Shown here in pieces: positions 789-43,246 of a DNA stretch of 64,000 bases. Below the pieces are notes generated by a model. That model had not been told where the DNA came from. It searched no databases and saw nothing but the letters and a program-made list of their open reading frames with translations. The stretch is from Minisyncoccota bacterium (lineage in GTDB: Bacteria; Patescibacteriota; Minisyncoccia; Phycocordibacterales; Phycocordibacteraceae): positions 103,180 to 167,179 of the forward strand of contig JALHOO010000002.1 in the NCBI GenBank assembly GCA_022842945.1, read 5' to 3'. Both the position numbers and the translations under genes were made by a program. Within the stretch, counting starts at the first letter, position 1; each line of letters starts with the position of its first letter.

Positions 789-1103
789 CTACCTGGAAAG
801 CATCGGGAGAGCGTTGCCTGTCTTGAGATACAGCGCAATGAGGTCTTCGTTGTCGTTGTGCGTCCAGACCTCGAGTGCCTTGCCGTGAAAATCCTTTCTG
901 AAATGGAGCCACAAAGCACCAAAAAGAAGGAGCGGCAGGATAAAGCCAGGGATGCTGTACGAACCAGCCACGAAGAACCATACCCCGAAGACGACAGGTC
1001 CCAAGAAAAGTTCTATCGCAAAATATCCGAGAGTCTTCAGCACGCGTTCACGCTCGGTATACCTCATCGCCCTTCTGCCATTAGCGTCTATGATCTGTAT
1101 CAT
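789..1103 (-). CDS. small membrane protein, possible bacterial PH-like domain, hypothetical
   Basis: Track ORF 789..1157, trimmed to the internal Met MIQIIDANG. Two hydrophobic helices follow. No recognisable motif. Confidence 0.3.
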   Translation of the reverse strand: MIQIIDANGRRAMRYTERERVLKTLGYFAIELFLGPVVFGVWFFVAGSYSIPGFILPLLLFGALWLHFRKDFHGKALEVWTHNDNEDLIALYLKTGNALPMLSR

Positions 1104-1168: not shown

Positions 1169-2620
1169 CTACTCCTCCCTCCAGTCTACAAACTCATAAT
1201 CTGTAGAGGTTGTAGGCGTAAAGGGCGGCGGGTCTGTTGAGAGCTTTCGGTCAAACGCATCAACGCGCGTCTGGTACCCTGCCTGGTTGTTTGATCCACA
1301 ATCAACCCCCGTCCACTTTGTTCCCGTACGCAGGTTTGAGACAGTCGTACCAAGAATAGTTAGAGAGGTGCGAGGCTCATACGAGGTATTACATCGGTCA
1401 TCATTCGCGTTTCGCCAGTAATAGTTGCGACCAAAGGCGCCCCCTTGGGCAACAAAAATGCCGTTCAATGTCATGTTCTGCGGGGAATTTGGCGTAACGA
1501 GCACGTTGTTCTCGGCAATAACTGTAAGTCCATCAGTACCGTCTGTTGCTGCATACGTTAGATTGCCCGGAAGCATCACGTTTGGCTCTATGCCTGTAGT
1601 TACTACGTTTGCCGCAACCACGGTTACCTTCCTATCAACCACTCCCTCAATCCATACATTGTCCTCTACATAAATGAGTCCGCACCCTGCAGGTATCGTG
1701 AGCGTTGAGTAGAAGCTTTCTGAAGAGATAAGGGTACGGTCCGGTAGCGCATCGTCTGACGTGTTCACGTGTGTCGAATGCAAGAGCGTGGTGTTCGTTA
1801 CGCGACGCACCGTTACCGTTCCATTCCCATTAAAGATGAGGTGGTATCCGTCCCAGTAGTTCTGGTTCCCCGTGTTCGTGCCGGTACTATATCGCGGAAG
1901 GTAGTGTCCTGACGCAATCGCTCGTGTCTTCAAACTTGAGAAGTCTGCCGCAATACCACTGAAATCAACCTGAGGCACCGGGTATCCCCACAATGTCTGG
2001 TTCGGTCCATTCCCCCACACACCAGTCTTTGTCTGATTAGGTGAACACCCGAAGGACGAGGTACAGAGCCAGGAGGATAAGGAGCTCGTAACTGGAGAGT
2101 TGGACGTACCGTCCATACGCACACCCCCATTGCTGTGATACGGACCAAGAATAACGCGGTCTTCCCCCGCCCACACACTGTCGTTCAGAATGTACGAGAA
2201 GCGCGCAACCGTTGGTCGCGCATAACGTGCCGTTATGGTGCTCGAAACATTTGGCGCGGCCTCGGGAGTCCCTGTAGAACGGATATCAATCGAGCTTATC
2301 GCTCCGCACGATGTGTTACCAGTTATGGCGAGCTCTATGATTCCCGCATTCCCGCCCTCTGGGTCTGCATAGGGAATGGTGTAAGGACCCGGCACTCCCG
2401 TGCCGTTCTGCAAATCGTTTGGGTAGTGTGCCAAGAACCAGCGATAGTACTCGAGACCTGCCTCAGCAATGGCCGTTGCCTGCACACTCTGCGTTGCTGT
2501 AGATTGTGCTCGGTTCTCGGTTAAAACAAACCCTGAAAGAGCACCCAGTACCGTAAGGAATATCGCACCAAACACGATGGCGAGGAGCATGAGGTAGCCG
2601 CGTACAGGTTCGTGTTTCAT
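1169..2620 (-). CDS. large pilin-like / pseudopilin-like protein (PilX/GspK-like N-terminus)
   Basis: Track ORF trimmed to MKHEPVRGYLMLLAIVFGAIFLTVLG: basic leader, Gly, then a hydrophobic helix without Glu at +5. Last gene of a run of pilin-like genes downstream of pilC. Many NxS/T sites. Confidence 0.45.
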   Translation of the reverse strand: MKHEPVRGYLMLLAIVFGAIFLTVLGALSGFVLTENRAQSTATQSVQATAIAEAGLEYYRWFLAHYPNDLQNGTGVPGPYTIPYADPEGGNAGIIELAITGNTSCGAISSIDIRSTGTPEAAPNVSSTITARYARPTVARFSYILNDSVWAGEDRVILGPYHSNGGVRMDGTSNSPVTSSLSSWLCTSSFGCSPNQTKTGVWGNGPNQTLWGYPVPQVDFSGIAADFSSLKTRAIASGHYLPRYSTGTNTGNQNYWDGYHLIFNGNGTVTVRRVTNTTLLHSTHVNTSDDALPDRTLISSESFYSTLTIPAGCGLIYVEDNVWIEGVVDRKVTVVAANVVTTGIEPNVMLPGNLTYAATDGTDGLTVIAENNVLVTPNSPQNMTLNGIFVAQGGAFGRNYYWRNANDDRCNTSYEPRTSLTILGTTVSNLRTGTKWTGVDCGSNNQAGYQTRVDAFDRKLSTDPPPFTPTTSTDYEFVDWREE

Positions 2621-2624
2621 AAGT

Positions 2625-3224
2625 CTATTCGCTGCGTAGGTTACGGAGCGTTGCCCCTGACTCAAGTCGGAGAATGTTCGGTGCACGAAGAGGATTAATA
2701 TCCACATCAAGACGAGCTCGGACAGAGCGCACACTCGCAATGTCTATAGCACCTGTTAACTCTACGCCATCCTCATCGAAGTATCGGAACACGGGCGTAT
2801 TCGCAGCATTCTTAACATACGTAGCGATAACCGTAGTCGTCTCTGACTGACCGGTGTACGAAGGCGGGTTGCCGGCGGCATTTGTAACGCCCTTATAAAA
2901 CGTATCTCCCGAACGATAGAGTCGCACCTTCTCAATAGCGGGGTCTGCATCGACATCTGCATGGAACGTAACACTTGAGGTTGCTGTGCCCGAAAGAGGA
3001 TACGCCCCATCCTCTCCATACGACGCCTCGCGCAATGAGGTAATGGACTCAGTAAGTCCCCTGCTCGCACTATCAACCGCACTTGTGGCTTCGAGCAGAT
3101 AGGCATTCGTACGATAGAAGTACGCAATCATCGAAAGGAGGCCGACGCCCACAAGTCCTGTAAGCGCAATAACCACGAGCATCTCTGCAAGTGTGAATCC
3201 CCTCATGCGCGCAGCAGTCATCAT
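2625..3224 (-). CDS. type IV pilin-like protein with canonical prepilin (class III) signal peptide
   Basis: MMTAARMRGFTLAEMLVVIALTGLVGVGLL contains the G|FTLxE prepilin peptidase motif. The track ORF 2625..3335 is N-terminally over-extended into the upstream gene. Confidence 0.6.
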   Translation of the reverse strand: MMTAARMRGFTLAEMLVVIALTGLVGVGLLSMIAYFYRTNAYLLEATSAVDSASRGLTESITSLREASYGEDGAYPLSGTATSSVTFHADVDADPAIEKVRLYRSGDTFYKGVTNAAGNPPSYTGQSETTTVIATYVKNAANTPVFRYFDEDGVELTGAIDIASVRSVRARLDVDINPLRAPNILRLESGATLRNLRSE

Positions 3225-4678
3225 TGCAGTATAAGCGTTGCCTCCGTAGCGGTGCCTGGCGCAATCGTATACGGAGGAGTCGAAGACGCCGTAACGATGG
3301 TGTATCCCGGAATCGAAAGCTCGTACACATCCCACTCAAGCGAGAGGGCTCGAACACCAAGCGCAGAGGTTGTTGTCGACACAATAGTCTTTGGTATAGG
3401 CACTCCAGCTCCCGTTGTGCCCTTCTTCTTAGCTCCTGTAAGGGTGAACGGGACATTGGGAAGCGGCACGGGCCCTTCATCAAACGCAATGGTCCACGAG
3501 GCAATCGCTGGTGTCGAGATACCGTCCGAGCTGAATTGCGCACGAACCTGTAGAGCGGGGTATGTAGTAGTTGATACTGCCGAAAGATCTATAGGAAAGG
3601 TACTGAATCCGCTCGTATTTCCTGGAAGCACCGCGTCTGACAACAACGTTCCGGTGCTGTCAGCAATAGATACTAAGAATGACGTACCTGCAGGTGTCGA
3701 CGCAGACACCGCAAGAGAAGTCCATGCGGAAAGATACGAAGGAGCAAACGATACGGACCGCGCACTTCCAGAGAGCGCGTAGCTTAGCGGTGCACCCGAA
3801 AGCATGAGATTGCCCCCTGACACTTGTGTTGAGAGCATTTCTTGCATGAGTGAAGCATCTGTAAAGGTATCAATGGTTGAACTTGCACGTATCGGGGAGA
3901 AGGTTTTCATAACAAGCTGTGCGAGTACATCTATGGAGAACGTGCTGGAGGTTGTCTGATTCTGCGCAACCGTGAGATACCCGGGAGTTGGATTCTGGTT
4001 TGTTGCATCGCGCACATACGTCTCAGCGGTTGAGTACCCGTCCTTGGAAACGGTTATGCGGTAGTTGGTTGAGGTAGGGGCACCCGGGAGAAGCACGATA
4101 CCCTCAAGATCCGCAAAAGTAGTGAAGTCCACCACCGGACTTACGGTTGAGTTCTGAATGCGGACTCCGGCGCCCGGAACCGGCGCACCAAGCGCATCTA
4201 CGGTGTTAATGCGTAGTGTCCCTCCACCAGTCGTGCTTTCAATAGACGGGGGTGCAATGTTTGAAACTACTGCTACCTCACGCTCCTCCTGACGGAAGAT
4301 ATAGGTTGCGGTTACACGCACGCGCTTGTAGTCGGTTGTGATGCCGTTAGCGTCGCTCGCTCCCGTGCCGTCCTTGCTGTCGTCCACATACTGAATAAAG
4401 GTGCGCACACCATACGGAATACCGTTTAGGGTTGTTGTTGCGTACTGCGCCACAGGACCCGCAGGAATACCTCCAAGCGTACCAACCGAGTCATACGGCA
4501 AGGATCTCAAGTACTCGATGTGCGTCGTAGCAACCGCGGTAGCACCGGCCTTTGCTTTAGAGGAGGACGAGATGAGGAGAGACGCGCGCAAGAGCCCCAG
4601 GAGCGCGAGGAAGACAATGAGGATGAGTGCGACACCCACCACCACATCAATGAGCGACATACCGCGCGGTATCTTCAT
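3221..4678 (-). CDS. large (about 485 aa) type IV pilin-like protein
   Basis: MKIPRGMSLIDVVVGVALILIVFLALLGLL: prepilin-like leader ending in Gly, then hydrophobic helix with Asp at +5. The Thr/Ser-rich remainder is unusually long for a pilin. Confidence 0.55.
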   Translation of the reverse strand: MKIPRGMSLIDVVVGVALILIVFLALLGLLRASLLISSSSKAKAGATAVATTHIEYLRSLPYDSVGTLGGIPAGPVAQYATTTLNGIPYGVRTFIQYVDDSKDGTGASDANGITTDYKRVRVTATYIFRQEEREVAVVSNIAPPSIESTTGGGTLRINTVDALGAPVPGAGVRIQNSTVSPVVDFTTFADLEGIVLLPGAPTSTNYRITVSKDGYSTAETYVRDATNQNPTPGYLTVAQNQTTSSTFSIDVLAQLVMKTFSPIRASSTIDTFTDASLMQEMLSTQVSGGNLMLSGAPLSYALSGSARSVSFAPSYLSAWTSLAVSASTPAGTSFLVSIADSTGTLLSDAVLPGNTSGFSTFPIDLSAVSTTTYPALQVRAQFSSDGISTPAIASWTIAFDEGPVPLPNVPFTLTGAKKKGTTGAGVPIPKTIVSTTTSALGVRALSLEWDVYELSIPGYTIVTASSTPPYTIAPGTATEATLILQ

Positions 4679-4706
4679 ACCGCTATGATAACGCACCAAT
4701 GCCGTA

Positions 4707-5915
4707 CTAAATCTTCTCTGAAAGAGAGTAGATCGGTGTAATCATCGCCATCGCAAACACACCCACGGCACTTCCGATAATGAGCATGAGAATGGGCTCG
4801 ATAATAGTTGAGAGATCCTTGGTGCGTTCTTCCACGTCAGTCTCGTAGTACTGCGCTACCTGTCCGAGCATGTCTGCTACTTTTCCGGTCTCCTCTCCCA
4901 CCGCAATCATGTCGCCCACAAATACCGGGTACAGCTTTGAGTGCTCTGAGAACGATACGGAAAGCGGCTCTCCTTTACGCACACGTTCTTCTGCTTCCTT
5001 CACCACCTTTCCAAAAGAGTTGTCCCCCACAACCTCTCCTGCAATAGAGAGCGCTGAAAGCATTTCAACACCTGAGGAAAGAAGGGACGACATGGAGCGC
5101 GCCGCACGCGCACTCATAGTCTCGCGTACGAGTTCTCCAATAACCGGAATGCGGAGAGCAAGGAAGAGCGTTACCTTCCCTCCCACCTTAGAACGAAGGA
5201 ACAGCATGAGCCCGGCAAAGAATGCCGCCACAAGCACGAGAACCAGCACAACATTGCCTGCCATAAAGTCTGAGACGTCCACAATGATGCGTGTCGCAAG
5301 CGGGAGCTCCACACCGAGCTCCTTAAACGTATTCGAAAGCGTTGGCACTACGAACATGAGCATCAGGATACCGATGACGACAATAGCGGAGAGAATAATC
5401 GACGGATATATCATCGCGCCCTTCACCTTCTTCTGAAGCGTATTTGCCTTGTCCATCTGCCGCGCTACAACCGCAAGGGACTCTGCGAGTGTTCCAGACT
5501 CTTCGCCAGCTTTCGTCATAGCAATAAAGAGATCAGAGAAAATCTTGCGATGCCGCGCCAGTGCCTCATGAAAGGCAGCTCCCTTCTTTACCTCGCTCTC
5601 AAGATCCATAACTATCTTCTTGAGGAACTTGTTCTTTGTCTGGCGCTCGATAACAGAGAGAGCGCGCGTAAGGGTGAGACCAGCTGCAATCATGGCAGCC
5701 AGGTTCTTCGTAAACGTAATCTTCTCGTCAGTCTTCACACCAGTCCCGATAGTCATCTGTGTCCACGCGGGCATACCGCCCGCACCTTCAAGCACTGAGA
5801 CAACCATCCCTCCTTCCTTCTCTACCTGCTCATACACAGCAAAACGACTCGCTGCCTCTATAACGCGCTTCTCTTCTCCTCCTTCAGCAGACTTCGATAC
5901 GACGCGGAATTTCAT
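4707..5915 (-). CDS. pilC: type IV pilus assembly platform protein PilC (GspF family)
   Basis: 402 aa with duplicated GspF-type domains and three TM segments. Adjacent to the PilB ATPase gene. Confidence 0.85.
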   Translation of the reverse strand: MKFRVVSKSAEGGEEKRVIEAASRFAVYEQVEKEGGMVVSVLEGAGGMPAWTQMTIGTGVKTDEKITFTKNLAAMIAAGLTLTRALSVIERQTKNKFLKKIVMDLESEVKKGAAFHEALARHRKIFSDLFIAMTKAGEESGTLAESLAVVARQMDKANTLQKKVKGAMIYPSIILSAIVVIGILMLMFVVPTLSNTFKELGVELPLATRIIVDVSDFMAGNVVLVLVLVAAFFAGLMLFLRSKVGGKVTLFLALRIPVIGELVRETMSARAARSMSSLLSSGVEMLSALSIAGEVVGDNSFGKVVKEAEERVRKGEPLSVSFSEHSKLYPVFVGDMIAVGEETGKVADMLGQVAQYYETDVEERTKDLSTIIEPILMLIIGSAVGVFAMAMITPIYSLSEKI

Positions 5916-5981
5916 AGAAGAATCCTAGCATGCAAAACATGACAGGCCGGATTCTCGAAAGGAGAATCCGGCCTGCAGGTT

Positions 5982-6362
5982 TCAGTATCTGACCGACACC
6001 GGCCGACTCGCCGTGAGCGCAGAGAGCGCAGCAGCGACGAGCGTCACGATCTGTAGCAGTACCGCCCACCACGGAATCGTCCTGTCGCCAGTAAGACCCG
6101 AAACGAAGACGAGGATGGTGGCAGCGATGAATGCGATGAAGGACCACCGCGGACCGAGCCAGCAGAGAAGCCAGGCGAGAAGGCCCGAGACGACGGCCAC
6201 AATGACCGATACCATCGGCACAGGCGTGAGGAGCGAGCCGACGTTGTAGTGGGTGCTCACCAGGTAGCCAGCGATGGCCGCCAGAAGCACCGCAAGAAAC
6301 TCATACACACTGCGTGACATGGGTATCTCCATACGAACGAGTCTGCCCGGGAGTCGGTGCAA
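5982..6362 (-). CDS. hypothetical membrane protein
   Basis: 126-aa ORF with 3-4 hydrophobic helices between pilC and pilB. No recognisable motif. Confidence 0.3.
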   Translation of the reverse strand: MHRLPGRLVRMEIPMSRSVYEFLAVLLAAIAGYLVSTHYNVGSLLTPVPMVSVIVAVVSGLLAWLLCWLGPRWSFIAFIAATILVFVSGLTGDRTIPWWAVLLQIVTLVAAALSALTASRPVSVRY

Positions 6363-6412
6363 AAAGGACGCGTTCCTGCGTCCTTTATACTCTCCCCAGT
6401 ATTTTCAGCAAC

Positions 6413-8167
6413 CTATTCTGCAACTGCCCGAAGCACCTCTTCAACAGACGTAATACCCCTCGTGGACTTGTAGAGTCCGTCCTCAAGCATGGTGAGCATG
6501 CCTTCTTTGCGCGCCTGCGCCTCTATCGCATCAGGAGATGCGCTATGAAGGATAAGGTCGCGAAGTGTTGGTGTAACCGTAAGAACCTCGTGAATACCGA
6601 TGCGGCCGGAGTATCCATCCTCGCATTGCGCGCTTGGTACCGCCTTATAGAACGGCACCGTATCAATCTTTGTTCCCTCTTTAACGAGCTTCTCCTCCGT
6701 TAGTGCGGCAAGCACGTTGTCAAAATGGTCTTCGCTCGCAATCTTGCCTCGCTCCACACTGTCGAGCGCGTACTCTTCTTTTCCGTCACACAGACGACGC
6801 ACCAAGCGCTGTCCCATAACCATGCGGAGTGTGGAGACGAGAAGAAACGGTTCAACACCCATATCCATAAGACGCGGAATGGCACCAGCGGCAGAGTTCG
6901 TATGGATGGTTGAGAGCACAAGGTGTCCGGTGAGCGCGGCATTGATGGCAAGAGACGCCGTCTCTGCGTCACGGATCTCTCCCACCATAATTATGTTCGG
7001 ATCCTGGCGAAGAAGGGCGCGCAGACCATTCGCAAACGTAAACCCAATTGCAGGGTTAACCTGCGTCTGATTCACGCGCTTCATCTGGTACTCGATAGGG
7101 TCTTCAACGGTGGATATATTTACGTCCGGCGTATTAAGAATGTCGAGAATGGTATAGAGGGTCGTTGTCTTTCCGGAACCGGTTGGTCCTGAAATAAGAA
7201 TGATGCCAGTGGTTTGCTTCATTGCCTTGTGTACGCGCTCAAGTCCCTGACCATGGAACCCGAGCACATCAAGCGTGAAGCCTTCACCCGTCTCGCGAAG
7301 AAGACGCATAACTACCTTCTCTCCAAAGTAGGTTGGAAGCATGGATACACGGAAGGACACCTTGTCAGTGTCGGTCTCCATCTTGAAGCGTCCGTCCTGC
7401 GGAAGACGCTTCTCGTCGAGCTTGAGGTTTGCAAGCACCTTAATGCGAGCAGTTATGCCGGCTGCTGCTGCACGCGGCAGAGTCATAGCGTCATGGAGCA
7501 CCCCGTCGATGCGATACCGCACGAGCACCTCAAGTTCCATCGGCTCAATATGGATGTCTGACGCCTTCTGAATAATGGCGTGGCGAAGAAGCGTATCAAC
7601 AATACGTACTATAGGAAGATCCTCGGCCATCTTCTTCAAGTCTTCTCCGGACACATCGTCTCCTGGTTGCCCGTCCTTTATAAGGTTAATGCGTCCAGCT
7701 TCAGTGGTAATAAGATCGCCGAACTCTTCCTTGAGAGACTTTTGGTACTGCAAGAGGACGTTCTTCAAAGACTCGTCGTCGGTAAGGCGCGGGAGAAGAC
7801 GAAGACCGGTAGACTTGCGAACCGAATCAATTGCAGGAAGATCTTCTGTATCAAGCATCGCCACTTCAAGCGTGTCCCCTTCTTTCTTGTACGCCACAAT
7901 GCTGTGCGTTCGTGCGATTGGTTCTGGGATAAGAGAGAGGACAGCAAGATCAATCTTCTTGTCCTTCAAGTTAACGAACGGAATGCCGAGCACGTATGCC
8001 TTTATGCGGCGAAGGCTGTCGCTTGAGAGAAGCCCCTGCGAAACAAGAATGTCTCCAATGGACTGCTTCTTTTGTTTTGCCTCTTCGTCTGCAGCATCAA
8101 CATCCTTCCGAGACACGAGTCCGGAGTCGAGAATGAATTCTTTGAGTTCGCTTTCAGAGACCTGCAT
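6413..8167 (-). CDS. pilB: type IV pilus assembly ATPase PilB (GspE family)
   Basis: Walker A GPTGSGKTTTLY and the GspE-type N-terminal domain. Start trimmed to MQVSESELKEF; the longer track start at 8215 is possible. Confidence 0.9.
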   Translation of the reverse strand: MQVSESELKEFILDSGLVSRKDVDAADEEAKQKKQSIGDILVSQGLLSSDSLRRIKAYVLGIPFVNLKDKKIDLAVLSLIPEPIARTHSIVAYKKEGDTLEVAMLDTEDLPAIDSVRKSTGLRLLPRLTDDESLKNVLLQYQKSLKEEFGDLITTEAGRINLIKDGQPGDDVSGEDLKKMAEDLPIVRIVDTLLRHAIIQKASDIHIEPMELEVLVRYRIDGVLHDAMTLPRAAAAGITARIKVLANLKLDEKRLPQDGRFKMETDTDKVSFRVSMLPTYFGEKVVMRLLRETGEGFTLDVLGFHGQGLERVHKAMKQTTGIILISGPTGSGKTTTLYTILDILNTPDVNISTVEDPIEYQMKRVNQTQVNPAIGFTFANGLRALLRQDPNIIMVGEIRDAETASLAINAALTGHLVLSTIHTNSAAGAIPRLMDMGVEPFLLVSTLRMVMGQRLVRRLCDGKEEYALDSVERGKIASEDHFDNVLAALTEEKLVKEGTKIDTVPFYKAVPSAQCEDGYSGRIGIHEVLTVTPTLRDLILHSASPDAIEAQARKEGMLTMLEDGLYKSTRGITSVEEVLRAVAE

Positions 8168-8298
8168 GCCGTTTGTAGTGAAAGTATAGCGCGGTAGCGC
8201 ATGTTTTTTGCGCATCTATATAGGTAGAACGCGTGGAAAAGAAAAAGCCGCGCGGTGGTGTGCCGCGCGGCCCTTCGAGTCCCGTGAAAATCAGATTG

Positions 8299-8952
8299 TC
8301 AGGACTGTTCGCCTGAAGAAATGATGAGCTCGAAAAGCTCCTTCAGGCGAGACTGGTACATCTCTAGAGGCATGCTCCTGAGCACCTCAACACGGCAAGC
8401 GTAGAGATGAGTATCGCTCAGCATCCTTGCTTTTGCCTCGGTCTCTTTATCGGTCTTCTCGTCCCCCTGGTTTCCCGTAAGAACAGAAGCGATTACGTCT
8501 GTGACGGACCTCCGCCGTATATAGAGTGGTATGCGAGCTCGATCAGGGATTCCTGACCATTGGCCAGTATGGCGACGTACTTCAAGTGAAGCGGTCGCCT
8601 CCAGCAAGTGGAATCTCTCGTTGAAGAACGAGAAGTCAGTAGCGCAGACTCGAACGATTCGGTCGAGTACAGTCCCCTCCTCAGTAGCAGCACGCACCAG
8701 CATCTTTTCGTGCGACTTTGTCTCATCTTCGACAATTGTAAGTAGCAGATCGGCCTTGTCTCTGAAGCTCGCGAACACAGCGCCGGTCGACATGCCCGCC
8801 CTTTTCGCTATGTCGCGGATAGTGGCCTGGCTGTAGCCACCTTCCATGAAGAGGGCTCGGCCTGCATTGATGACCTTCTTACGGGTCTTCGCCTTGGCTT
8901 GATGCCGACGATTGGGTAATCCCTTTTTGGTTATTCCAACCTCGTTGCTCAC
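8299..8952 (-). CDS. TetR-family transcriptional regulator
   Basis: N-terminal TetR HTH, ...AGRALFMEGGYSQATIRDIAKRAGMSTGAVFASFRDK..., in a 217-aa protein. Confidence 0.8.
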   Translation of the reverse strand: MSNEVGITKKGLPNRRHQAKAKTRKKVINAGRALFMEGGYSQATIRDIAKRAGMSTGAVFASFRDKADLLLTIVEDETKSHEKMLVRAATEEGTVLDRIVRVCATDFSFFNERFHLLEATASLEVRRHTGQWSGIPDRARIPLYIRRRSVTDVIASVLTGNQGDEKTDKETEAKARMLSDTHLYACRVEVLRSMPLEMYQSRLKELFELIISSGEQS

Positions 8953-12233: not shown

Positions 12234-12372
12234 ATTTGCGAAACCCCAAAAAAGTGTTATTTTATAAGGGTTCTGGGGAATTCTGCTTTACAGAAACGGC
12301 TGAAATACTGCGTTCCCGAACCTAATTTGCTTGCAAACCCTTCGCGTACGCGCGAAGGACCCATCCACCGGT

Positions 12373-13902
12373 ATGTCCATAAAGATAATATTGAGCCTTT
12401 TGGCGCTTTCCGGCCTCGCCGGTATTGCGCTTGGGTACGTGCTTCGCCTCTTAATTGCACTCGGCCAGCGCGGGTCGCTTGAGATAGAGGTTAAGCAAAA
12501 GATGCTCGAAACCAAGGAGCGCGCGAACCGCGTCCTTGAGGACGCTGAGGACCGTGCCCGCAAGCTTGAAGAAGAGCGTGCCCTTCCCCTGAAGGAACAA
12601 GAGGAGAAGATAGCAAAGCTAACAGAGCGCATCAACAAGCGCGAGGAGTTTCTTGATGAGCGTGAGCGAGCGCTCGCCATTGACCTTGAGGAGGTTAAGA
12701 ACCGCGAGAACGAAGTAGCGAACCTGAAGCGTGACGCAGAGAAACTTCGTGACGAGCGCAGACAGGAACTGGTGCGCGTGGGACGTCTCTCAGAGAAGGA
12801 TGCGAAAACCGCCCTTCTCAAAGACCTTGAGGACAGCCACGAGGAGAGTGTGCTTGCACGCCTCCAGAAGCTTGCCGCAAATGGCCGCGAACAACTTGAA
12901 GAGAAGAGTCGTGCCATCCTCCTTGCAACCGTACATCGCATGGCAGGGGCCGTTAACAGCGAGGTTATGACGCTTTCCGTTACGATTCCTTCTGAAGAGG
13001 TTAAGGGAAAGATTATCGGCAAAGAAGGACGTAACATTAAGGCCTTTGAGCGCGCTACCGGTGTCGACGTTATTATCGACGACGCTCCGGACAAGATAAC
13101 GCTCTCATCGTTCGATCCCCTTCGCCGCCACATCGCAAAGCTCGCGCTTGAGAGTCTTATAGAGGATGGCCGTATACAGCCCGCAAAGATTGAAGAGGCA
13201 GTTGAGAAGGCAAAGGCTGAAGTTGCTGAGGCAGTTAAACAAAAGGGTGAGCAGGCGGCATACGAGGTTGGTGTTATAGGCCTCGATCCACGTCTTGTAG
13301 CACTCCTTGGACGTCTGCACTTCCGCACCAGCTACGGACAGAATGTCCTCCAGCATTCAATTGAAATGGCACACATCGCAGGCATGCTCGCGTCTGAGCT
13401 GGGTGCTGACAGTGACGTCGCAAAAGCTGGCGCACTCCTTCATGACATCGGAAAGGCTGTTGATCACGAAGTTGAAGGCACGCATGTAGAAATTGGACGC
13501 CGCATCCTCGAGAAATTCGGCGTTGCAAAGCCGGTTATTCAGGCCATGCAGTCGCACCATGAGGAGTATCCGTATGAAACACCGGAATCTATGATCGTGC
13601 AGGCGGCAGATGCCCTCTCCGCAGGGCGCCCTGGAGCTCGTAGAGACACCGTAGAGCGCTATCTAGAGCGCCTTACGGACCTGGAGCGCATTGCGCGGGG
13701 ATATGAAGGCGTTGAGAAGGTATACGCTATCTCTGCAGGGCGTGAAATAAGGATATTCGTGAACCCAGGCAAGGTCTCAGACCTGGCGATGCACAGAATG
13801 GCACGTGATATTGCTGAGCGCGTACAGCAGGAACTCAAGTATCCAGGCGAAATCAAGGTTAACGTGATTCGGGAGAACAGAGTGGTTGAGTTTGCGCGCT
13901 AA
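12373..13902 (+). CDS. rny: ribonuclease Y
   Basis: N-terminal TM helix, coiled coil, KH domain and HD domain (LLHDIGKAVDHEVEGTHVEIG). Track start 12331 trimmed to MSIKIILSLL. Confidence 0.9.
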   Translation: MSIKIILSLLALSGLAGIALGYVLRLLIALGQRGSLEIEVKQKMLETKERANRVLEDAEDRARKLEEERALPLKEQEEKIAKLTERINKREEFLDERERALAIDLEEVKNRENEVANLKRDAEKLRDERRQELVRVGRLSEKDAKTALLKDLEDSHEESVLARLQKLAANGREQLEEKSRAILLATVHRMAGAVNSEVMTLSVTIPSEEVKGKIIGKEGRNIKAFERATGVDVIIDDAPDKITLSSFDPLRRHIAKLALESLIEDGRIQPAKIEEAVEKAKAEVAEAVKQKGEQAAYEVGVIGLDPRLVALLGRLHFRTSYGQNVLQHSIEMAHIAGMLASELGADSDVAKAGALLHDIGKAVDHEVEGTHVEIGRRILEKFGVAKPVIQAMQSHHEEYPYETPESMIVQAADALSAGRPGARRDTVERYLERLTDLERIARGYEGVEKVYAISAGREIRIFVNPGKVSDLAMHRMARDIAERVQQELKYPGEIKVNVIRENRVVEFAR

Positions 13903-14409: not shown

Positions 14410-15615
14410 CTATAGGGCGTCAACTGCCTCTTCAGCGAGATCCATTGCCTCTTCAGCGTAGTCTATGGCGTCGTCATAGTCTTCGTCGTCGAAGGCGTCT
14501 TCTGCGTCGTTAAGTGCGTCCTCAGCCTCATCGAGAAGATCTTCTGCTTTGTTAATCTTCGAGCTTGAGCTATTGGAGTCATCAATTTCATCGCGCGCAT
14601 CGTCAATTGCATCCTTTGCGTCATCAATGGCGTCTTCTGCATCGTCCTCATCTCCTCCACTTGAGTTGCGTGAGTCAATCTCGTCGAGCGCTTCGTCAAT
14701 GAGGTCCATTGCCTCTTCTGCATACTCTATGGCGTCTTTATAGTCACCGTCATCAAATGCATCCTCTGCATCCTTAATGAGGTCGTCAGCCTCGTCGAGA
14801 AGGTCCTCTGCCTTGTCGGTATCCTCACCGTCATCATAGGCTTCATCTACCTCATCCTTGGCATCATCAAGTGCATCGTTCGCGTCGTCGATGAGGTCTT
14901 CAGCATCCGCTTCCGACTCCTTGCTTCCAACTCCCTCGATCTCATCAAGTGCTTCGTTAACAAGATCCTCTGCTTCCTCAGCAAGATCAAGTGCCTCGCT
15001 GTAGTCTTTGTCAACGAACGCGTAGAGCGCTTCAGTGAGTACGTCGTCAGCTTCAGCAAGAAGTGTCTTAGAGCTTCCTAGATTGTTGCCGTCATCTTTC
15101 GCGTCGTCGTAGTCGTCCTGAGCATCCTCATGTGCATCACGCGCATCGAGTATGGCGTTGCGCGCTGAATTCTCCTGTGTGGAACTCGGCTGTGGAGACG
15201 GAATAACTGGCGTCGTTGGCTGTGGGACTGGTGTTGTGGGTGCCGGTGCTGGAGTTGACGACGTAAGTACGATGTACTTCGCGCGTGAGAGTGGACCGAA
15301 CGTGCCCGTGGCAGGACTAATGCCATTTGCGGCCTGCCACTTCTGTACGGCAGCAACGGTCTTCGTCTGGTACTGATTTGTCTCGAAGCCTTTCGACCCC
15401 ACGCCAGACGCAGAAACAGTGAACCCGTTTGCATTCAGATACCGCTGAAGACAACGGACTGCTTCGGTCTCAACGCCGAGCTCAAGATTGCTTGTAAACG
15501 TACAGGTCGCGGCGCGAGCATTGCTTGGAAGAAGGAGCACGCTTCCTGCGAACGCTATGGCGAATGCAAAAAATAGTGCGCCGCTTCTTTGTAGTGTCTG
15601 GGTATTCATACGCAT
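14410..15615 (-). CDS. secreted protein: N-terminal peptidoglycan-binding-like domain, Pro/Thr linker, about three acidic 65-aa helical repeats
   Basis: Signal peptide; PG_binding_1-like LQRYLNANGF...TVAAVQKWQAANGI; TPAPAPTTPVPQPTTPV linker. Then repeated KAEDLLDEADDLIKDAEDAFDDGDYKDAIEYAEEAMDLIDEALDEID units. Confidence 0.6.
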   Translation of the reverse strand: MRMNTQTLQRSGALFFAFAIAFAGSVLLLPSNARAATCTFTSNLELGVETEAVRCLQRYLNANGFTVSASGVGSKGFETNQYQTKTVAAVQKWQAANGISPATGTFGPLSRAKYIVLTSSTPAPAPTTPVPQPTTPVIPSPQPSSTQENSARNAILDARDAHEDAQDDYDDAKDDGNNLGSSKTLLAEADDVLTEALYAFVDKDYSEALDLAEEAEDLVNEALDEIEGVGSKESEADAEDLIDDANDALDDAKDEVDEAYDDGEDTDKAEDLLDEADDLIKDAEDAFDDGDYKDAIEYAEEAMDLIDEALDEIDSRNSSGGDEDDAEDAIDDAKDAIDDARDEIDDSNSSSSKINKAEDLLDEAEDALNDAEDAFDDEDYDDAIDYAEEAMDLAEEAVDAL

Positions 15616-31641: not shown

Positions 31642-32640
31642 ATGGCTCATTCTACCCGCACACTCCGCATCGGCATCGCTTCATTAGTAGCTATCGTTAT
31701 GGTTGGGGGAACCTTCGCACTCACTGGTCCTGATCCTCTGTTTGGTCTTGGTCGCGTTGCTGAAGCGCAGTCTTCGGAAGAGCTCTTGCGTGAATATGCT
31801 GCTAAAGATACGGACTCTGACAGTCTCCCGGACTGGCAGGAGTCGCTCTATGGGACAGACCCAACAAACCCGGAGTCGTTCCAGGCAGGCATCAAGGACG
31901 GGGATGCGGTTGCACAGGGGCTCATTCAGCCGAAGGTTGCAGTACGCGAGGAAGGCGAGATGACGGATATCGAGACTATCCCAGGAACTACTGCGGCCCC
32001 GAACTCTCTCACAGACCGCTTTGCACAAACACTTCTCAAGCAGTACCTCCAGAACAGGGGAGAGACGCCGCCAACGAGCGCGGAGATTGTTGCGTTTGTT
32101 GAGGCGGGCATTCAGAACCTCGTTGCAGAAAGCGACTCATCCGCTCGCTATGCACTTGCTGACGTGCGGCTGTCTGGAGAGACAGGAACCATTGGACTCC
32201 AGTCCTACGCTGCACAGATGGAAAGTGCATTTGCACGCAACACGGTTGCCGCGAACCGGAACGAGCTTTCCTACTTCTCTGACGCACTTAGCGGAGACAC
32301 GGCTTCTCTCAAGAAGATTGGGGAGATTAGCCAAGCATACAAGAACATCGCGTCTGCACTCATCACAGTACCGGTTCCAAGCGAAGCCCGTCAGGCACAT
32401 CTTTCAATTGCTAACGCGCTCGTACACATGAGTGAGACAAGTGCAGACATGGCAGCCATGGAAACAGATCCGCTTCGCGCACTTATGGGCATCGGACTCT
32501 ACGAGAAGTACGCAACAGAGCTCGTTGCAGGATTCTCTAACCTGCACGGCGTATTTTCTGCACAACAAGTGTCTGTGCCACAGGGAACTGTTGGGTATCA
32601 AGTTATTAAAACAGCGGCAGATGCCGCCGCAAGCAATTAG
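31642..32640 (+). CDS. secreted hypothetical protein, first gene of the T4SS-like cluster
   Basis: Signal peptide/TM IGIASLVAIVMVGGTFALTG. No recognisable motif. Confidence 0.4.
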   Translation: MAHSTRTLRIGIASLVAIVMVGGTFALTGPDPLFGLGRVAEAQSSEELLREYAAKDTDSDSLPDWQESLYGTDPTNPESFQAGIKDGDAVAQGLIQPKVAVREEGEMTDIETIPGTTAAPNSLTDRFAQTLLKQYLQNRGETPPTSAEIVAFVEAGIQNLVAESDSSARYALADVRLSGETGTIGLQSYAAQMESAFARNTVAANRNELSYFSDALSGDTASLKKIGEISQAYKNIASALITVPVPSEARQAHLSIANALVHMSETSADMAAMETDPLRALMGIGLYEKYATELVAGFSNLHGVFSAQQVSVPQGTVGYQVIKTAADAAASN

Positions 32641-32643
32641 CCT

Positions 32644-34068
32644 ATGAACCGCACTTCACATACCCCCCACGCAAAGAAGTTCGCCGCAGGTGCACTTATG
32701 TTTGTGTGTTTGGTTGGTGTTTCAATTCCGCACAAGGCTGAGGCTCAATTTACTGACGCACTTAACCTCGTCCAGAACACTATTCAGGCAGTGTTCAGTT
32801 CTGGAGAGAATGTTAAGGAGTATGTGTTCGATGCGCTCGCATGGCAGGTTGCGAACATGGCCATTGAGTCTATTACAAAGAGCACCGTTAACTGGATTAA
32901 CTCCGGCTTCCAGGGATCTCCTGCATTCGTTACAGATCTGAACGAGAACCTTCGAGGGGTGGGGGATGCGGTTGCCGCCCGCTTCTTTGACGAGCTCTCT
33001 GCACAGACCATTGCTGATACTCCATTCCAGGACAAGGTTCTCGACAGCGTTCGTCTCGCATACTACCTCCGCACCAGTCCTGAATCTTTCTACACACGCA
33101 ATCCGTACACCTTGAATCAGGTTAGTGCGAACGATCGTGCATTCCTTCAAGGAGACTTCAACCAGGGAGGCTTCAATGCCTGGTTCGCAACCGTGATGAA
33201 TCCGCAGAACAATCCGTACGGCGCGCAGATGCTTGCGAACGAAGCACTTGAGAACGCAGTTGCGGGCGCAACAGGTAACCGCCTTGAGGAGCTTTCATGG
33301 AACCGTGGATTCCTTTCATGGAGAGGGGATTGTGCAGTATCAGACGAGACGGACACCATATCACTCACCGGAGCAGACCCGTGTGTGGAGTACAACATCG
33401 ACACGCCAGGGTCCGTTATCATGGAGCAGCTCAACAGCCAGCTTGGTGTTGGTGTGGAGCGTCTTGTCTCTGCTGACGAGTTCAACGAGATCATCGGTGC
33501 ACTCTTGAACCAGCTCGCAAGCCAGGTGCTTGGCGGAGGCAGTGGGGGACTACGCGGTGTGTCGCGTCCTTCAACCGGAGGCGGAGGTTCGTTCCTTGAT
33601 ACAGCGTCCGGTTCTTCTACGGGAAGCGGTGCGGCTATTAGCCGAACATTCTCTTCAACTATAACGAACCAGATTGCACGCATCGATGCATACCGTGCTT
33701 CGTGGGAGAAGATTCGTACTGCAGCAGAGGCAGCACGGCAGCAGTGTGCGAATAACAGCGCGGCGCAGGATGTACTTAACCGCGCAGCTGTTGCTCTAAC
33801 GAAGGCCGCGAATGCGCGGGCAGCACTTCAGGCGATTGAAACCAAGCTTGCTGAGAGCGCGGCGCAGGGAGGAGACAGAACACTGGATCTCCTTGATATC
33901 TCGAACGAGTACAACGAACTCACCGCCTCCGGCGTTCTTCCATCTGCAGAGGAGATTGCAGAGGCACAGAACGAGTCACAGGATACGGGAGACACAGAAC
34001 CAGGTTCGCTATATAGCCAGATGAAGCGTGCATCGTCTGGAAGTTGTAGCGCTAACTCGGGCAACTAG
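32644..34068 (+). CDS. secreted hypothetical protein with Gly-rich segment and C-terminal coiled coil
   Basis: Signal peptide FAAGALMFVCLVGVSIPHKAEA. Starts one codon after the upstream stop, in the same frame. Confidence 0.4.
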   Translation: MNRTSHTPHAKKFAAGALMFVCLVGVSIPHKAEAQFTDALNLVQNTIQAVFSSGENVKEYVFDALAWQVANMAIESITKSTVNWINSGFQGSPAFVTDLNENLRGVGDAVAARFFDELSAQTIADTPFQDKVLDSVRLAYYLRTSPESFYTRNPYTLNQVSANDRAFLQGDFNQGGFNAWFATVMNPQNNPYGAQMLANEALENAVAGATGNRLEELSWNRGFLSWRGDCAVSDETDTISLTGADPCVEYNIDTPGSVIMEQLNSQLGVGVERLVSADEFNEIIGALLNQLASQVLGGGSGGLRGVSRPSTGGGGSFLDTASGSSTGSGAAISRTFSSTITNQIARIDAYRASWEKIRTAAEAARQQCANNSAAQDVLNRAAVALTKAANARAALQAIETKLAESAAQGGDRTLDLLDISNEYNELTASGVLPSAEEIAEAQNESQDTGDTEPGSLYSQMKRASSGSCSANSGN

Positions 34069-34070
34069 AT

Positions 34071-36674
34071 ATGCAGAAGCTCCTACGAGCGTCACTTCTT
34101 GTAGCGACTCTGTCGGTGCTTTTGTTTGTGAGTGGGCATGGCGCTGTCAGTGCGCAGACCCCACCTCCTGCTCCTGACCCCACACCCACACTTGAAGATA
34201 AAGGGCAGGCCGGAGCGTACGACCAAAGTGCTGTTGCGAGACTGCGGGATGCTTGTTTCGCGGCTAATGGTGGTGATCGGATTGGGTGTGCTGTTGAAAA
34301 CAGCCCTGCAGGCGGAAGTACTTCGTGTGAAGCCGTTGGCTTGTTGCCGCCAAGAATCAGGTGCGAGGCTAAGTTCCCTGATGGCAGCAGGATCATCTCT
34401 CAACAAGGAATATCCAACTCCTGGGTAAACAGTTATTACGGCTCACCCGAAGACGATGATCCGCTGGTACGCGACCCAGGACTAGGGGATGACGTAGGTG
34501 ACGAAGAGGATGTTGCAGCCGTTACAAATGTTGGCAGGTCTTGTACGGAAGGGGATGTTGTTAGTTGTCTCCGAAATCTGCCTGGGATGCTCTTTACTGG
34601 AATCGCGTTTCTTTTTCTTACGCTCTCCGGGTTTGTTCTGGGACTTGCGGGCACCGTCTTTAACTGGGTTGTTATACGAACCGTATTCCAATTCGGAACA
34701 TACTTTGGCACCAACGAAGGCATGCTCATAGCGTGGGGAGTTATGCGAGATGTTGCAAACATTGGTCTTCTGTTCGGGTTCATTCTCATGGGGGTTCTTC
34801 TCATACTGAATGTTGAAGGCGGCGGAGGGCACGGCCATGGCGGAGGGATGAGTGCAAAGAAGGCGATTCCTCGCTTGATTATCTTTGCTGTTCTTCTTAA
34901 CTTCAGTCTCTTTGCTTCTCAACTTGTTATCGATGTAGCAAACGCATTCAGCTCTAGCTTTGCAACACTCGCAGGAGAATCTTGTTCGACAAATACTTCG
35001 ACCGGAACAAATGCTGACAATAGTGCGCAAGACAACGATGCCTGCGCAAACATTGGTATTGCGGGACAGGTACTTAAGGTAACAGGCCTAACGGCATTGT
35101 GGGACACAGAGGCTCTTGATATAGAGACGGGAATGAAGAATCTTGTTGATCGACCGTACTCCTACGCTGTGTCGCTCATCATGCTTTCCATATTTGTGCT
35201 CATAACCGCAATGGTGCTTCTTGCTGGTGCAATTATGCTCATCATTCGTGTAGTTATTCTGTCATTGCTCATGGTTACCTCGCCAGTTGGATTTGCTGGT
35301 ATGGCGATACCAAAGCTTCAAGGTATAGCTACGATGTGGTGGAGCAAGCTCATGTCACAAGCATTCTTTGCGCCGGTCTACCTTCTCCTCATATTCATCA
35401 GCATCAAGCTGACCGAGGGCCTAACAGAAGGGAACGCGACTCTTGCGAACGCACTTATTGCTAATGAGGGCAATTCAGTAGCGGGAAACATGCAGGTGGT
35501 TATGGTGTTCCTGATTGTTATTGGATTCATGATCGGCTCGCTTATTGCTGCTACGAAGATGGGAGCAATGGGCGCAAGCTTCGCAACAAATGCCGCGAGC
35601 GCTCTTGCGTTCGGAGCAGTCACTCGTGGTGCAAACTTTACGACCGGAGGGGCAGCGTACGGACTAAGACGCATCCAGCAGAAAACCGGTTTTGGGGGAC
35701 GTGTAGGTGAAGTGATGGTAAATCGTGGCCTGCGTCCGTTAGAGAAAGCGAATCTTGACCTGCGACGCATTCCAGGAATGGCCGGAGGTCTTGGTGCTGC
35801 AGGCATATCAGCAGGAGCTAAGGCAGCGGAACATGCGACATATGCCGATATTGCACATCAGTTCTCTGACATAAAAGCAGGCAAGGAAGGACAGAAGCTT
35901 CACGAAGAATACGATCAGGAGAAGAAGAATATGATGCTTGAAGACAATGCGCATCATGGCGGAATGACTTCAGATGACAAGGCACACCTTGCTTCCCTAT
36001 CTACGAAGGAACTTGAGCAGCTTCATGGAGTCAAGGAGGGCGTACAGCAGCTTGCAGAGAATTTGAGTCCTGAACAGTTTGAGAACCTAATGAAGAGCGA
36101 CAAGCTTACAGATATCGAGAAGGGGACCCTTAAGTCTGGTCGCTTCTCGTCCTTGAATGAGGCGGCTGCATCTGGCCGCGGAGCAGACGTGAAGAATCTA
36201 ATGAAGACCATGAGCAAGAAGGATCTTGAGAACGCGCCGAATGGCGTACTCCTACAGCCGCTTGTTCTCGAGAATCTTTCTGATCAGCAGCGTGAGGACC
36301 TTGTTAAGAGCGACAAGCGAACACCAGCCGAAAAGGCTGCCATAAAGGCTTCGTACGCAAACGAGGTTCTGAAAACAGTCTTTACAGGGGCAGGTGGTGG
36401 TGCAGCAGGGGCGGCAGCAGTCATCGCACACCCAAAGTATGGTTCTGTGTCTACAGCTCAGTTCGCTGAACTTGGTGTTGATATACTTCAGCAGTCATCT
36501 ATTGCCCAGAACATTCCGGTATCGGTACTTGAAAAGATTGTTAAGGACAATAAGTTGAGTCCTGCGGAGATGAAGCTTGTTGGAGCACAGATGGAGGCAG
36601 CCGTCGCAGCGGGCACAGCCTCAGCTGGAGTAAGAGGATATATGGCAAGTCCTAAGGGAGATTTCTGGAGGTAA
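34071..36674 (+). CDS. VirB6/TrbL-like polytopic membrane protein with long C-terminal repeat-containing extension
   Basis: Signal peptide, a large extracytoplasmic N-domain, then about 6 TM helices (...SLIMLSIFVLITAMVLLAGAIMLIIRVVILSLLMVTSPVGFAGMAIP...). C-terminal hydrophilic region has repeated ENL..Q.EDLVKSDK.T..EK units. Confidence 0.5.
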   Translation: MQKLLRASLLVATLSVLLFVSGHGAVSAQTPPPAPDPTPTLEDKGQAGAYDQSAVARLRDACFAANGGDRIGCAVENSPAGGSTSCEAVGLLPPRIRCEAKFPDGSRIISQQGISNSWVNSYYGSPEDDDPLVRDPGLGDDVGDEEDVAAVTNVGRSCTEGDVVSCLRNLPGMLFTGIAFLFLTLSGFVLGLAGTVFNWVVIRTVFQFGTYFGTNEGMLIAWGVMRDVANIGLLFGFILMGVLLILNVEGGGGHGHGGGMSAKKAIPRLIIFAVLLNFSLFASQLVIDVANAFSSSFATLAGESCSTNTSTGTNADNSAQDNDACANIGIAGQVLKVTGLTALWDTEALDIETGMKNLVDRPYSYAVSLIMLSIFVLITAMVLLAGAIMLIIRVVILSLLMVTSPVGFAGMAIPKLQGIATMWWSKLMSQAFFAPVYLLLIFISIKLTEGLTEGNATLANALIANEGNSVAGNMQVVMVFLIVIGFMIGSLIAATKMGAMGASFATNAASALAFGAVTRGANFTTGGAAYGLRRIQQKTGFGGRVGEVMVNRGLRPLEKANLDLRRIPGMAGGLGAAGISAGAKAAEHATYADIAHQFSDIKAGKEGQKLHEEYDQEKKNMMLEDNAHHGGMTSDDKAHLASLSTKELEQLHGVKEGVQQLAENLSPEQFENLMKSDKLTDIEKGTLKSGRFSSLNEAAASGRGADVKNLMKTMSKKDLENAPNGVLLQPLVLENLSDQQREDLVKSDKRTPAEKAAIKASYANEVLKTVFTGAGGGAAGAAAVIAHPKYGSVSTAQFAELGVDILQQSSIAQNIPVSVLEKIVKDNKLSPAEMKLVGAQMEAAVAAGTASAGVRGYMASPKGDFWR

Positions 36675-36679
36675 TATCT

Positions 36680-37402: not shown

Positions 37403-37446
37403 AATCACTAGTTTGAAACGCGCTTAGGTCCTGCTACTATTTTAGT

Positions 37447-37920: not shown

Positions 37921-37984
37921 CGTCCACAGTACGAACGTGAGGAATTTAGCAGTCGGCGAGAACCGACTGCTATACTTATAGGTA

Positions 37985-38389: not shown

Positions 38390-38392
38390 TCT

Positions 38393-39025: not shown

Positions 39026-39028
39026 TCT

Positions 39029-40852: not shown

Positions 40853-40855
40853 CGT

Positions 40856-41362: not shown

Positions 41363-41409
41363 CATTACCCCCGTCCTCTAAAGAGGCTCTGGGGTATTCG
41401 GTATATACT

Positions 41410-42399: not shown

Positions 42400-42403
42400 C
42401 ACT

Positions 42404-43243: not shown

Positions 43244-43246
43244 TTT

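Follow-up and report, generated by a model that had tools for sequence, protein, structure and literature searches.

A probable type IV pilus locus with a proposed tip-forming minor-pilin trio and a ComZ-like beta-solenoid cap in a Paceibacteria-type bacterium

A stretch of 64,000 nucleotides from a Minisyncoccota bacterium (contig JALHOO010000002.1, positions 103,180 to 167,179; hereafter, the window) carries on its minus strand, between positions 1169 and 8215, the genes pilB and pilC followed by three prepilin genes, which are designated pA, pB, and pC. We consider it likely that this locus encodes the core of the assembly apparatus for a type IVa-like pilus in a monoderm, Paceibacteria-type bacterium belonging to the candidate phyla radiation (CPR), in which PilB would serve as the motor, PilC as the platform, and the minor-pilin trio as the proteins forming the tip. 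The trio is best read as a priming and tip complex resembling GspI, GspJ, and GspK and not as a set of oversized major pilins. An earlier reading of the sequence alone (the original prediction) had recognized a type IV pilus locus, which is borne out by the T2SSE match of PilB, the T2SSF match of PilC, and the prepilin genes. Its proposal of tip adhesins stands as regards the tip, to which the homology of pC points (no Glu5 and a ComZ-like fold), whereas the adhesin part gives way to a core priming set with a pC conserved like a housekeeping protein.

Few surface machines are conserved in CPR bacteria (Patescibacteria), and type IV pili belong to these; they are essential in the Saccharibacteria in culture, but outside that group their tip proteins are termed 'hypothetical'. 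The present analysis provides a confident fold and a role for three families that are inherited together, of which the pC family has no Pfam model and is found in at least 549 species-level genomes, and it extends the reach of the ComZ/PilX beta-solenoid cap from Thermus and cyanobacteria into a large CPR class. A targeted full-text search of a collection of papers returned no description of the Paceibacteria family; the finding is a large, well-conserved, and unannotated Paceibacteria family, to which comparable proteins have already been described, and not a new kind of system. The constant cap pC and the variable immunoglobulin (Ig)-like arm of pA provide targets for experiments that set DNA uptake against host attachment.

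Organization of the locus

The five genes are as follows (aa, amino acids; a slash marks the putative cleavage site of each leader):

6413-8215, minus strand: pilB, assembly ATPase of 600 aa (MshEN-type domain at the N-terminus, T2SSE ATPase core)
4707-5915, minus strand: pilC, inner-membrane platform protein of 402 aa
3221-4678, minus strand: pA, PilV/GspI/ComGE-like minor pilin of 485 aa, leader MKIPRG/MSLIDVVV
2625-3224, minus strand: pB, minor pilin in the PilW/GspJ position, 199 aa (193 aa from a later Met), leader MMTAARMRG/FTLAE
1169-2620, minus strand: pC, ComZ/PilX-type cap pilin of 483 aa, leader MKHEPVRG/YLMLL, without Glu5

On the minus strand, pilB and pilC precede a tight array of pA, pB, and pC with products of 485, 199, and 483 aa, which corrects the order originally listed (200, about 485, and about 484 aa). 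The stop codon of pA and the start codon of pB overlap as ATGA, and a gap of 4 nt separates pB from pC; thus, the three genes are translationally coupled. Reassessment of the start codons leaves the leaders in place, since longer versions of the open reading frames (ORFs; 492, 236, and 523 aa) would run into the preceding gene and are unsupported by orthologues.

The related set comprised 549 pC relatives in species-representative genomes, and 80 loci were retrieved for comparison. Each of the three proteins begins with a prepilin leader, i.e., a short basic stretch up to a Gly followed by ~20 hydrophobic residues, and the leaders first noted in the window recur with the same motifs in orthologues from 80 species. 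The leader of pA follows the pattern R-G/[MVLF]-[ST]-[LF]-[IV]-[DE], in which position +5 holds Asp among close relatives and Glu among the more distant. That of pB is the canonical G/[FML]-T-L-x-E, and the protein exceeds the cut-off of the Pfam model N_methyl (24.0 bits against 21.2), which is also matched by 18 of 22 orthologues. The leader of pC is of the R-G/Y-L-M-L-L type, with an acidic +5 residue in none of the species.

The ATPase and platform components of a type IVa pilus are present at the locus, as indicated by the family matches of PilB and PilC. PilB matches the Pfam families T2SSE (4.8e-125) and MshEN (5.9e-13) and scores 545 bits against the NCBIfam model of PilB and 526 bits against that of GspE, both under the equivalog cut-offs; it is 56-92% identical across 69 related loci. 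PilC matches Pfam T2SSF in two stretches (7.3e-56) and scores 305 bits against GspF and 267 bits against PilC in NCBIfam, likewise under the cut-offs. Additionally, the two proteins match ComGA and ComGB below the respective cut-offs.

The cap pilin pC

The predicted structure of pC is divided into the following elements:

2602-2426, minus strand: alpha1 helix, residues 7-65 (59 residues)
2383-2219, minus strand: pilin sheet of four strands, residues 80-134
2194-1256, minus strand: beta-solenoid, residues about 143-455
1195-1175, minus strand: C-terminal strand, residues 476-482

The AlphaFold2 (AF2) model, computed from a 90-sequence alignment with identities of 29-60%, has a mean predicted local distance difference test score (pLDDT) of 95.3 and a predicted template modeling score (pTM) of 0.91. 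A Foldseek search of the PDB with pC places Thermus thermophilus ComZ (6QVI) in the first three positions, with E values of 2.3e-10 to 8e-9 and a probability of 1.0; behind it come ice-binding beta-helices, FfIBP (4NU2) included. ComZ consists of a GspK-like pilin domain with a triangular beta-solenoid of ~380 residues between the penultimate and last strands, and FfIBP was named the closest relative of this solenoid (PMC6561018); thus, pC displays the same pair of similarities as described for ComZ. Both are pilin-like proteins of ~500 aa in which a hydrophobic helix at the N-terminus is combined with a small GspK-like sheet and a large, triangular beta-solenoid akin to ice-binding proteins, and each is encoded last in a run of minor pilin genes. 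However, the two have no significant sequence similarity; pC comes from a monoderm CPR bacterium and is acidic and Lys-poor, and mapping onto it the two Lys residues that are implicated in ComZ is not possible.

Among the 90 members of the pC family, 16 match PilX_N (best 1.2e-7), and weak NCBIfam matches are found to GspK (5 members, 4.6e-5), ComGG (8 members), and ComGE (6 members). Taken with the absence of Glu5 and the ComZ-like fold, the PilX_N, GspK, and ComGG matches support by homology a putative location of pC at the pilus tip. Comparable proteins are the solenoid PilX proteins of cyanobacteria (Synechocystis PilX3 and others), which are cap-type, lack Glu5, carry the solenoid between the penultimate and last strands, and share a co-encoded core priming set with partners of the PilV and PilW types; they were proposed to act as a tip plug in place of PilY1 and compared with ComZ (10.64898/2026.02.12.705559). 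While cyanobacteria possess two specialized sets, for competence and for motility, the window contains one trio, and the likeness across the two phyla is one of architecture.

The beta-solenoid of pC, which hardly varies across the class, is probably a bulky tip plug or priming surface, and it probably binds a generic ligand. Extracellular DNA would be the leading candidate ligand, by likeness to ComZ. A tailspike-like depolymerase was also considered for pC and rejected, the best match in a viral structure library having an E value of 0.47.

The modular pilin pA and the canonical pilin pB

The layout of pA is as follows:

4678-4661, minus strand: leader MKIPRG/M
4678-4229, minus strand: pilin module, residues 1-150
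4222-3935, minus strand: CarboxypepD_reg-like beta-sandwich, residues 153-248
3922-3476, minus strand: second beta-sandwich, residues 253-401
3451-3227, minus strand: third beta-sandwich, residues 410-484

The AF2 model of pA (pLDDT 86.7, pTM 0.61) comprises a helix at residues 9-59, a four-stranded sheet at residues 79-141, and then three beta-rich domains. Therewith, the alpha1 helix and lollipop fold on which a pilin assignment of the large proteins depended are found in both pA and pC (helix 7-65), the helix being packed on a four-stranded sheet in each; a long N-terminal alpha1 helix would be shared by pB. Foldseek relates the additional domains of pA to the tandem CnaB/Ig-like domains of sortase pilins and adhesins of Gram-positive bacteria (TIE 6fwv at 9e-10, then BcpA, PitA, and RrgB), and the Pfam family PF13620 is matched at 1e-5, under its cut-off; sequence searches of the PDB with pA and pA profiles returned no match. 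The pilin module gives weak matches below the cut-offs, which among 16 orthologue modules point to ComGE in seven, PilV in five, and XpsI (GspI) in two; pA itself scores 16.7 bits against the PilV model, whose cut-off is 52.2, and its module also weakly matches HpsB.

In three species, the pA orthologues are 145-149 aa long and correspond to pA residues 5-148, i.e., to the module alone, with pB directly next to them. Together with the AF2 layout, these orthologues reveal that pA is a pilin module with grafted C-terminal domains and that the two are separable. Across 73 species, pA falls into length classes of ~145 aa (3 species), 400-499 aa (18), 550-599 aa (51), and 953 aa (1). At 485 aa, the pA of the window lies outside the most common class, and thus represents a minority variant of a protein with a variable number of Ig-like domains. 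The grafting of a C-terminal module onto a pilin module is analogous to the modular pilins of Streptococcus sanguinis, such as PilB with its von Willebrand factor A (vWA) module (PMC8179133); however, the modules of pA are tandem CarboxypepD_reg/CnaB-like beta-sandwiches, variable in number, and neither vWA nor lectin domains.

The family profile of pB matches the N-termini of Geobacter type IV pilins in the PDB at 3.8e-5. The original prediction had regarded all three proteins as big even in comparison with minor pilins, which applies to pA and pC; the size of pB is ordinary for pilins of the GspJ/PilW type. Residues 90-98 of pB (2957-2931, minus strand) read D-V-D-A-D-P-A-I-E, and the underlying pattern D-x-D-x-D-x-x-[IV]-E occurs in 16 of 22 orthologues as well as in lineages ~30% identical; we take this motif to resemble the nine-residue EF-hand-like Ca2+ site of PilY1.

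Two of the proteins had been described as extremely rich in Thr, Ser, and Asn with many N-x-S/T sequons. The richness is real, as Ser, Thr, and Asn account for 27% of pA and pC against 10-15% of cytoplasmic neighbours, while the excess of sequons is confined to pC and marginal (12 sequons, where composition predicts 6.6 +/- 2.3; p about 0.02); 3 occur in pA against 2.8 expected, and pB has none. Each sequon of pC is kept in at most 34 of the 90 distant homologues. N-glycosylation, at which the sequons had hinted, was set aside as not indicated, the excess being marginal and limited to pC and the sequons poorly conserved. Gly, Ala, Ser, and Thr (GAST) make up 37-43% of the trio proteins against 27% of PilB, and a GAST bias was likewise reported for the pilins of Nanosynbacter lyticus TM7x (PMC11623550). 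A better account of the richness in Ser, Thr, and Asn is given by the folds (beta-solenoid and beta-sandwich) together with the GAST bias of extracellular pilins.

Assembly of the proposed tip complex

Gene content, leaders, folds, conservation, and synteny are shown by the analysis, while the tip location, the ligands, and the order of assembly are inferred. In the order that we propose, pA, pB, and pC would be inserted into the membrane as prepilins and cut behind the conserved Gly by a prepilin peptidase whose gene would lie elsewhere. pC would enter the fibre first and cap its top in the manner of GspK, PilX, and ComZ; since it lacks Glu5, the link to the subunit above, it could occupy the top position only, and its bulk, too, fits the tip only. 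The same tip-only argument from bulk and top subunit was made for ComZ by its authors (PMC6561018) and, in the cyanobacterial study, for solenoid PilX as a plug akin to PilY1 (10.64898/2026.02.12.705559). Below pC, pB in the GspJ/PilW position and pA with its GspI/PilV/ComGE-like module would dock via their alpha1 helices to form a GspK-I-J-like trimer. The trio would then prime assembly on PilC, and PilB would drive the polymerization of the major pilin, encoded elsewhere, beneath the trio complex.

The GspK-GspI-GspJ tip of type II secretion systems (T2SS) and the PilX-PilV-PilW set of type IVa pili (T4aP) resemble the trio as three co-encoded minor pilins or pseudopilins, with a cap that lacks Glu5 and is the largest. 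The trio yields weak GspK, XpsI, and PilV matches, and pC is the last of its three genes. The I-J-K and V-W-X gene orders of T2SS and T4aP operons correspond to this placement. However, the extra domain of GspK is alpha-helical and inserted elsewhere (PMC6561018), GspI and PilV are small, single-domain proteins in contrast to pA with its 330 extra residues, and neither a GspH/FimU adapter nor GspG is encoded at the locus. Within the CPR, a parallel in kind is provided by PilX1 and PilX2 of TM7x, which are large minor pilins with accessory domains and non-canonical leaders, are GAST-rich, and were proposed as tip proteins (PMC11623550). In place of a solenoid such as that of pC, these proteins have a beta-jelly roll and a seven-bladed beta-propeller as accessory domains; moreover, very low conservation of pilins across Patescibacteria was described in that work (PMC11623550), whereas the pC family is highly conserved within Paceibacteria.

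A number of results weigh against the assignment of the locus and its cap. The placement of the pC solenoid before the last strand follows from the secondary-structure order assigned by DSSP to the AF2 model and is one of order, not of coordinates. Global superposition of pC and ComZ gives a TM-score of 0.30 with a root-mean-square deviation of 16.5 A, and the pC family profile reaches an E value of 3.1 against the ComZ sequence (6qvi_A); a phmmer search of the PDB with pC gave no match. The low TM-score and this E value imply that the tie to ComZ rests on fold and architecture, not on sequence homology, so that pC and ComZ would share a modeled architecture while their homology is unproven. 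No Pfam or NCBIfam model is matched by pC itself, and its net charge of -12 and Lys content of 1.2% do not favour DNA binding, though ComZ, too, is without an obvious basic patch (PMC6561018). As the original prediction had stated, neither a small major pilin nor a prepilin peptidase accompanies the locus: a six-frame scan of the whole 64 kb for class III signals revealed no further pilin and no major pilin, and PilD, PilM/N/O, and PilT were absent among the membrane and large ORFs of the window that were scanned, which are a part of all ORFs. Of 80 relatives, 79 lack a major pilin within +/-10 kb of the locus, the remaining one (L081) having one extra canonical pilin, and no GspH/FimU-like adapter occurs in the operon, which holds three minor pilins only. 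With the major pilin and PilD missing nearby, a complete pilus is assumed, and the major pilin and the prepilin peptidase would be encoded elsewhere in the genome. Finally, type IV pili of Saccharibacteria are essential for reasons unrelated to comEC-dependent competence (PMC10633639).

The explanations that compete with this reading of the locus differ mainly in the use of the fibre, namely a T2SS-like pseudopilus, host adhesion, or competence. The first of these, in which PilB/GspE and PilC/GspF with a GspI-J-K-like tip would form a piston for protein export, appears quite improbable. It could account for the lack of a major pilin near the locus in the relatives, PilB and PilC score nearly equally against GspE and GspF and against the PilB and PilC models, the trio resembles GspI/J/K with some family members matching GspK and XpsI, and 'T2SS' is a common annotation in CPR genomes (PMC10633639). 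However, no GspG- or GspH-like pseudopilin was found, other T2SS parts were unseen among those window ORFs that were scanned, and Patescibacteria are thought to lack an outer membrane, which leaves the piston without a barrier. Furthermore, a distant family member adjoins pilM and two genes resembling pilN and pilO by eye, i.e., alignment machinery of the T4aP type, and an exposed tip is the more plausible place for a bulky solenoid of 310 residues and an Ig-like array of 330 residues.

Conservation, synteny, and the use of the fibre

Relatives of pC number more than 2,269 at 90% clustering, and an exhaustive search gave 579 representatives at 50% clustering. The best 120 relatives at 90% clustering are 65-79% identical to pC, of the same length, and without Pfam domains, and the named ones among them are each a 'hypothetical protein' of Paceibacterota, Parcubacteria, or Patescibacteria. 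The 80 retrieved loci are labelled Kaiserbacteria, Paceibacterota, or Parcubacteria, some of them 'uncultured Candidatus Saccharibacteria'; the labels of the pC relatives place the window in a Paceibacteria-class CPR bacterium.

The order pA-pB-pC is unchanged in 80 species. In the 34 species in which all ten genes of the neighbourhood are present, the mean identities to the window proteins are 66% for NusA, 70% for PilB, 55% for PilC, 47% for pA, 44% for pB, 53% for pC, 48% for triosephosphate isomerase (TIM), 52.5% for phosphoglycerate kinase (PGK), 53% for RecJ, and 44% for ComEC. The conservation of pC exceeds that of pA in 71 of 78 species and that of pB in 78 of 79. Judged by sequence identity, pC thus appears to evolve at the pace of a housekeeping enzyme, and its constancy suggests a structural role, a generic ligand, or both.

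The conservation of pC, on a par with that of PGK and RecJ, speaks against a host-specific adhesin. Use of the pilus mainly for host binding, with the large domains of pA and pC recognizing the host surface of a putative episymbiont, is a possible but doubtful explanation. In its favour, efficient binding to the host in Saccharibacteria requires PilX2, a large minor pilin of the PilX type, and the C-terminal domains of the PilX proteins look lectin-like (PMC11623550); a Paceibacteria lineage that attaches to Methanospirillum has pilin gene clusters (PMC9763046). The tandem Ig/CnaB-like domains of pA are typical of Gram-positive adhesins and pilins, and their number differs among species. However, a receptor-binding protein specific to a host is expected to diverge fast, whereas pC equals PGK, RecJ, and PilC in conservation, and surpasses TIM and ComEC, across 34-78 species from many habitats; in addition, neither pA nor pC has a lectin or carbohydrate-binding module family match in Pfam or NCBIfam. 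Among the trio, only the variable Ig-like array of pA fits host attachment, and it is a better candidate than pC for a surface- or host-specific adhesive arm.

The related loci share the unrearranged gene order nusA (on the opposite strand), pilB, pilC, pA, pB, pC, tpiA, pgk, recJ, and comEC. The trio remains intact in a lineage at 31% identity, where a malic enzyme gene is next to it, and another distant family member adjoins pilM and the two small pilN- and pilO-like genes mentioned above. The trio is therefore a conserved unit, while the recJ/comEC neighbourhood is lineage-wide synteny and not an operon; the proximity of recJ and comEC was rejected as a functional link, for it belongs to a colinear block that is lineage-wide and gone in distant lineages.

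This synteny bears on the explanation of the locus as a dedicated competence (Com-like) pilus, a short DNA-capture fibre with the ComZ-like cap pC as the DNA receptor. Such a fibre would supply ComEC, be it for transformation or to scavenge nucleotides, in an organism that is probably unable to synthesize them. We regard this explanation as rather unlikely, even though the top structural match of pC is the DNA-binding competence pilin ComZ (PMC6561018), the pC and pA families give weak ComGG and ComGE matches, and PilB and PilC match ComGA and ComGB under the cut-offs. The housekeeping-like conservation of pC also suits a universal ligand, every related locus whose flank is long enough has recJ and comEC at 3-6 kb downstream, oriented alike, and CPR bacteria are naturally competent, with nucleotide scavenging by the Com system and type IV pili having been proposed (PMC10633639). 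Nevertheless, recJ and comEC lie within the lineage-wide synteny that includes nusA, tpiA, and pgk, and their linkage is lost in distant lineages, where the trio adjoins pilM or a malic enzyme gene. The operon lacks a ComGC-like major pilin, and pC is acidic and Lys-poor. In Saccharibacteria, comEC is dispensable and type IV pili are essential, and T4P-2 pilin mutants are normally competent (PMC10633639, PMC11623550). Likewise, solenoid PilX proteins occur in both competence and motility pili of cyanobacteria, so that the fold does not specify DNA binding (10.64898/2026.02.12.705559).

The more far-reaching proposal that the pC family is a ComZ-type DNA receptor near-universal in Paceibacteria/Kaiserbacteria, and that the pilBC-pApBpC operon builds a DNA-capture pilus supplying ComEC in bacteria unable to make nucleotides, is in our view unlikely; if true, it would provide CPR DNA uptake with a concrete extracellular receptor.

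Separately, comEC itself seems split into two genes in the related locus L001, past the low end of the window (12297-13778 and 14437-15303), with a 493-aa gene encoding the DUF4131 and Competence domains and a separate downstream 288-aa metallo-beta-lactamase gene, between which lies a superoxide dismutase gene on the opposite strand. The arrangement is the same in L005/L006 and is conserved in many related genomes.

Spacers, flanking genes, and other regions of the window

The remaining features in and around the locus are listed below:

5916-6412, minus strand: pilB-pilC spacer of about 498 nt with a 126-aa membrane ORF and a hairpin with a T tract
6362-5982, minus strand: 126-aa membrane ORF inside this spacer, which occurs in the same species only
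5976-5942, minus strand: 15-bp GC-rich hairpin followed by a T-rich tract, terminator-like, just upstream of pilC
789-1103, minus strand: small ORF of 104 aa with two transmembrane segments directly downstream of pC, with a 'KTLG/YFAIE' stretch (regular-expression match) and a good Shine-Dalgarno sequence
8299-8952, minus strand: TetR-family regulator gene between nusA and pilB (Pfam TetR_N, 2.5e-14)

Across species, the pilB-pilC spacer measures between 2 and 3743 nt, with a median of 31, and its content in the window is probably a lineage-specific insertion rather than a core part. An Rfam search of the spacer gave zero family matches, and with a spacer length so variable, an RNA element was rejected; the hairpin at 5976-5942 could be an attenuator or a leftover of the insertion. 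The 126-aa ORF was rejected as a part of the system, being conserved in the same species only. The pilC-pA junction is an insertion hot spot like the pilB-pilC junction, with spacers of -3 to 2470 nt, and in Parcubacteria bacterium C7867-004 (L005/L006, 6994-7879) it accommodates an 84-aa membrane ORF and a TMEM175-like channel gene.

The 104-aa ORF (1103-789) is present in 3 of 87 loci, all from the same species; it was rejected as a part of the system on this ground and lies probably outside the pilus system. A TetR match at the position of the regulator gene is found in one other related locus only (40% identity), and the gene may be a lineage-specific regulator of the pilus operon.

A second PilB/GspE-like ATPase of 557 aa, ~35% identical to the PilB of the locus, is encoded at 54727-56400 on the minus strand (T2SSE 1e-105 plus MshEN). 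It has no neighbouring pilin or platform gene and lies between ruvB-like and polA-like genes, both identified by eye from the N-termini of their products. At 31642-44470 on the plus strand, e.g., 37985-38389 and 39029-40852, ORFs for secreted and membrane proteins form a cluster, among whose products are one resembling PrgI/VirB3 (Pfam PrgI, 1.3e-9) and an ATPase resembling VirB4 (TraG P-loop, 1.3e-24, and AAA_10). The cluster looks like a monoderm-type type IV secretion system, which is widespread in Patescibacteria (PMC12102498).

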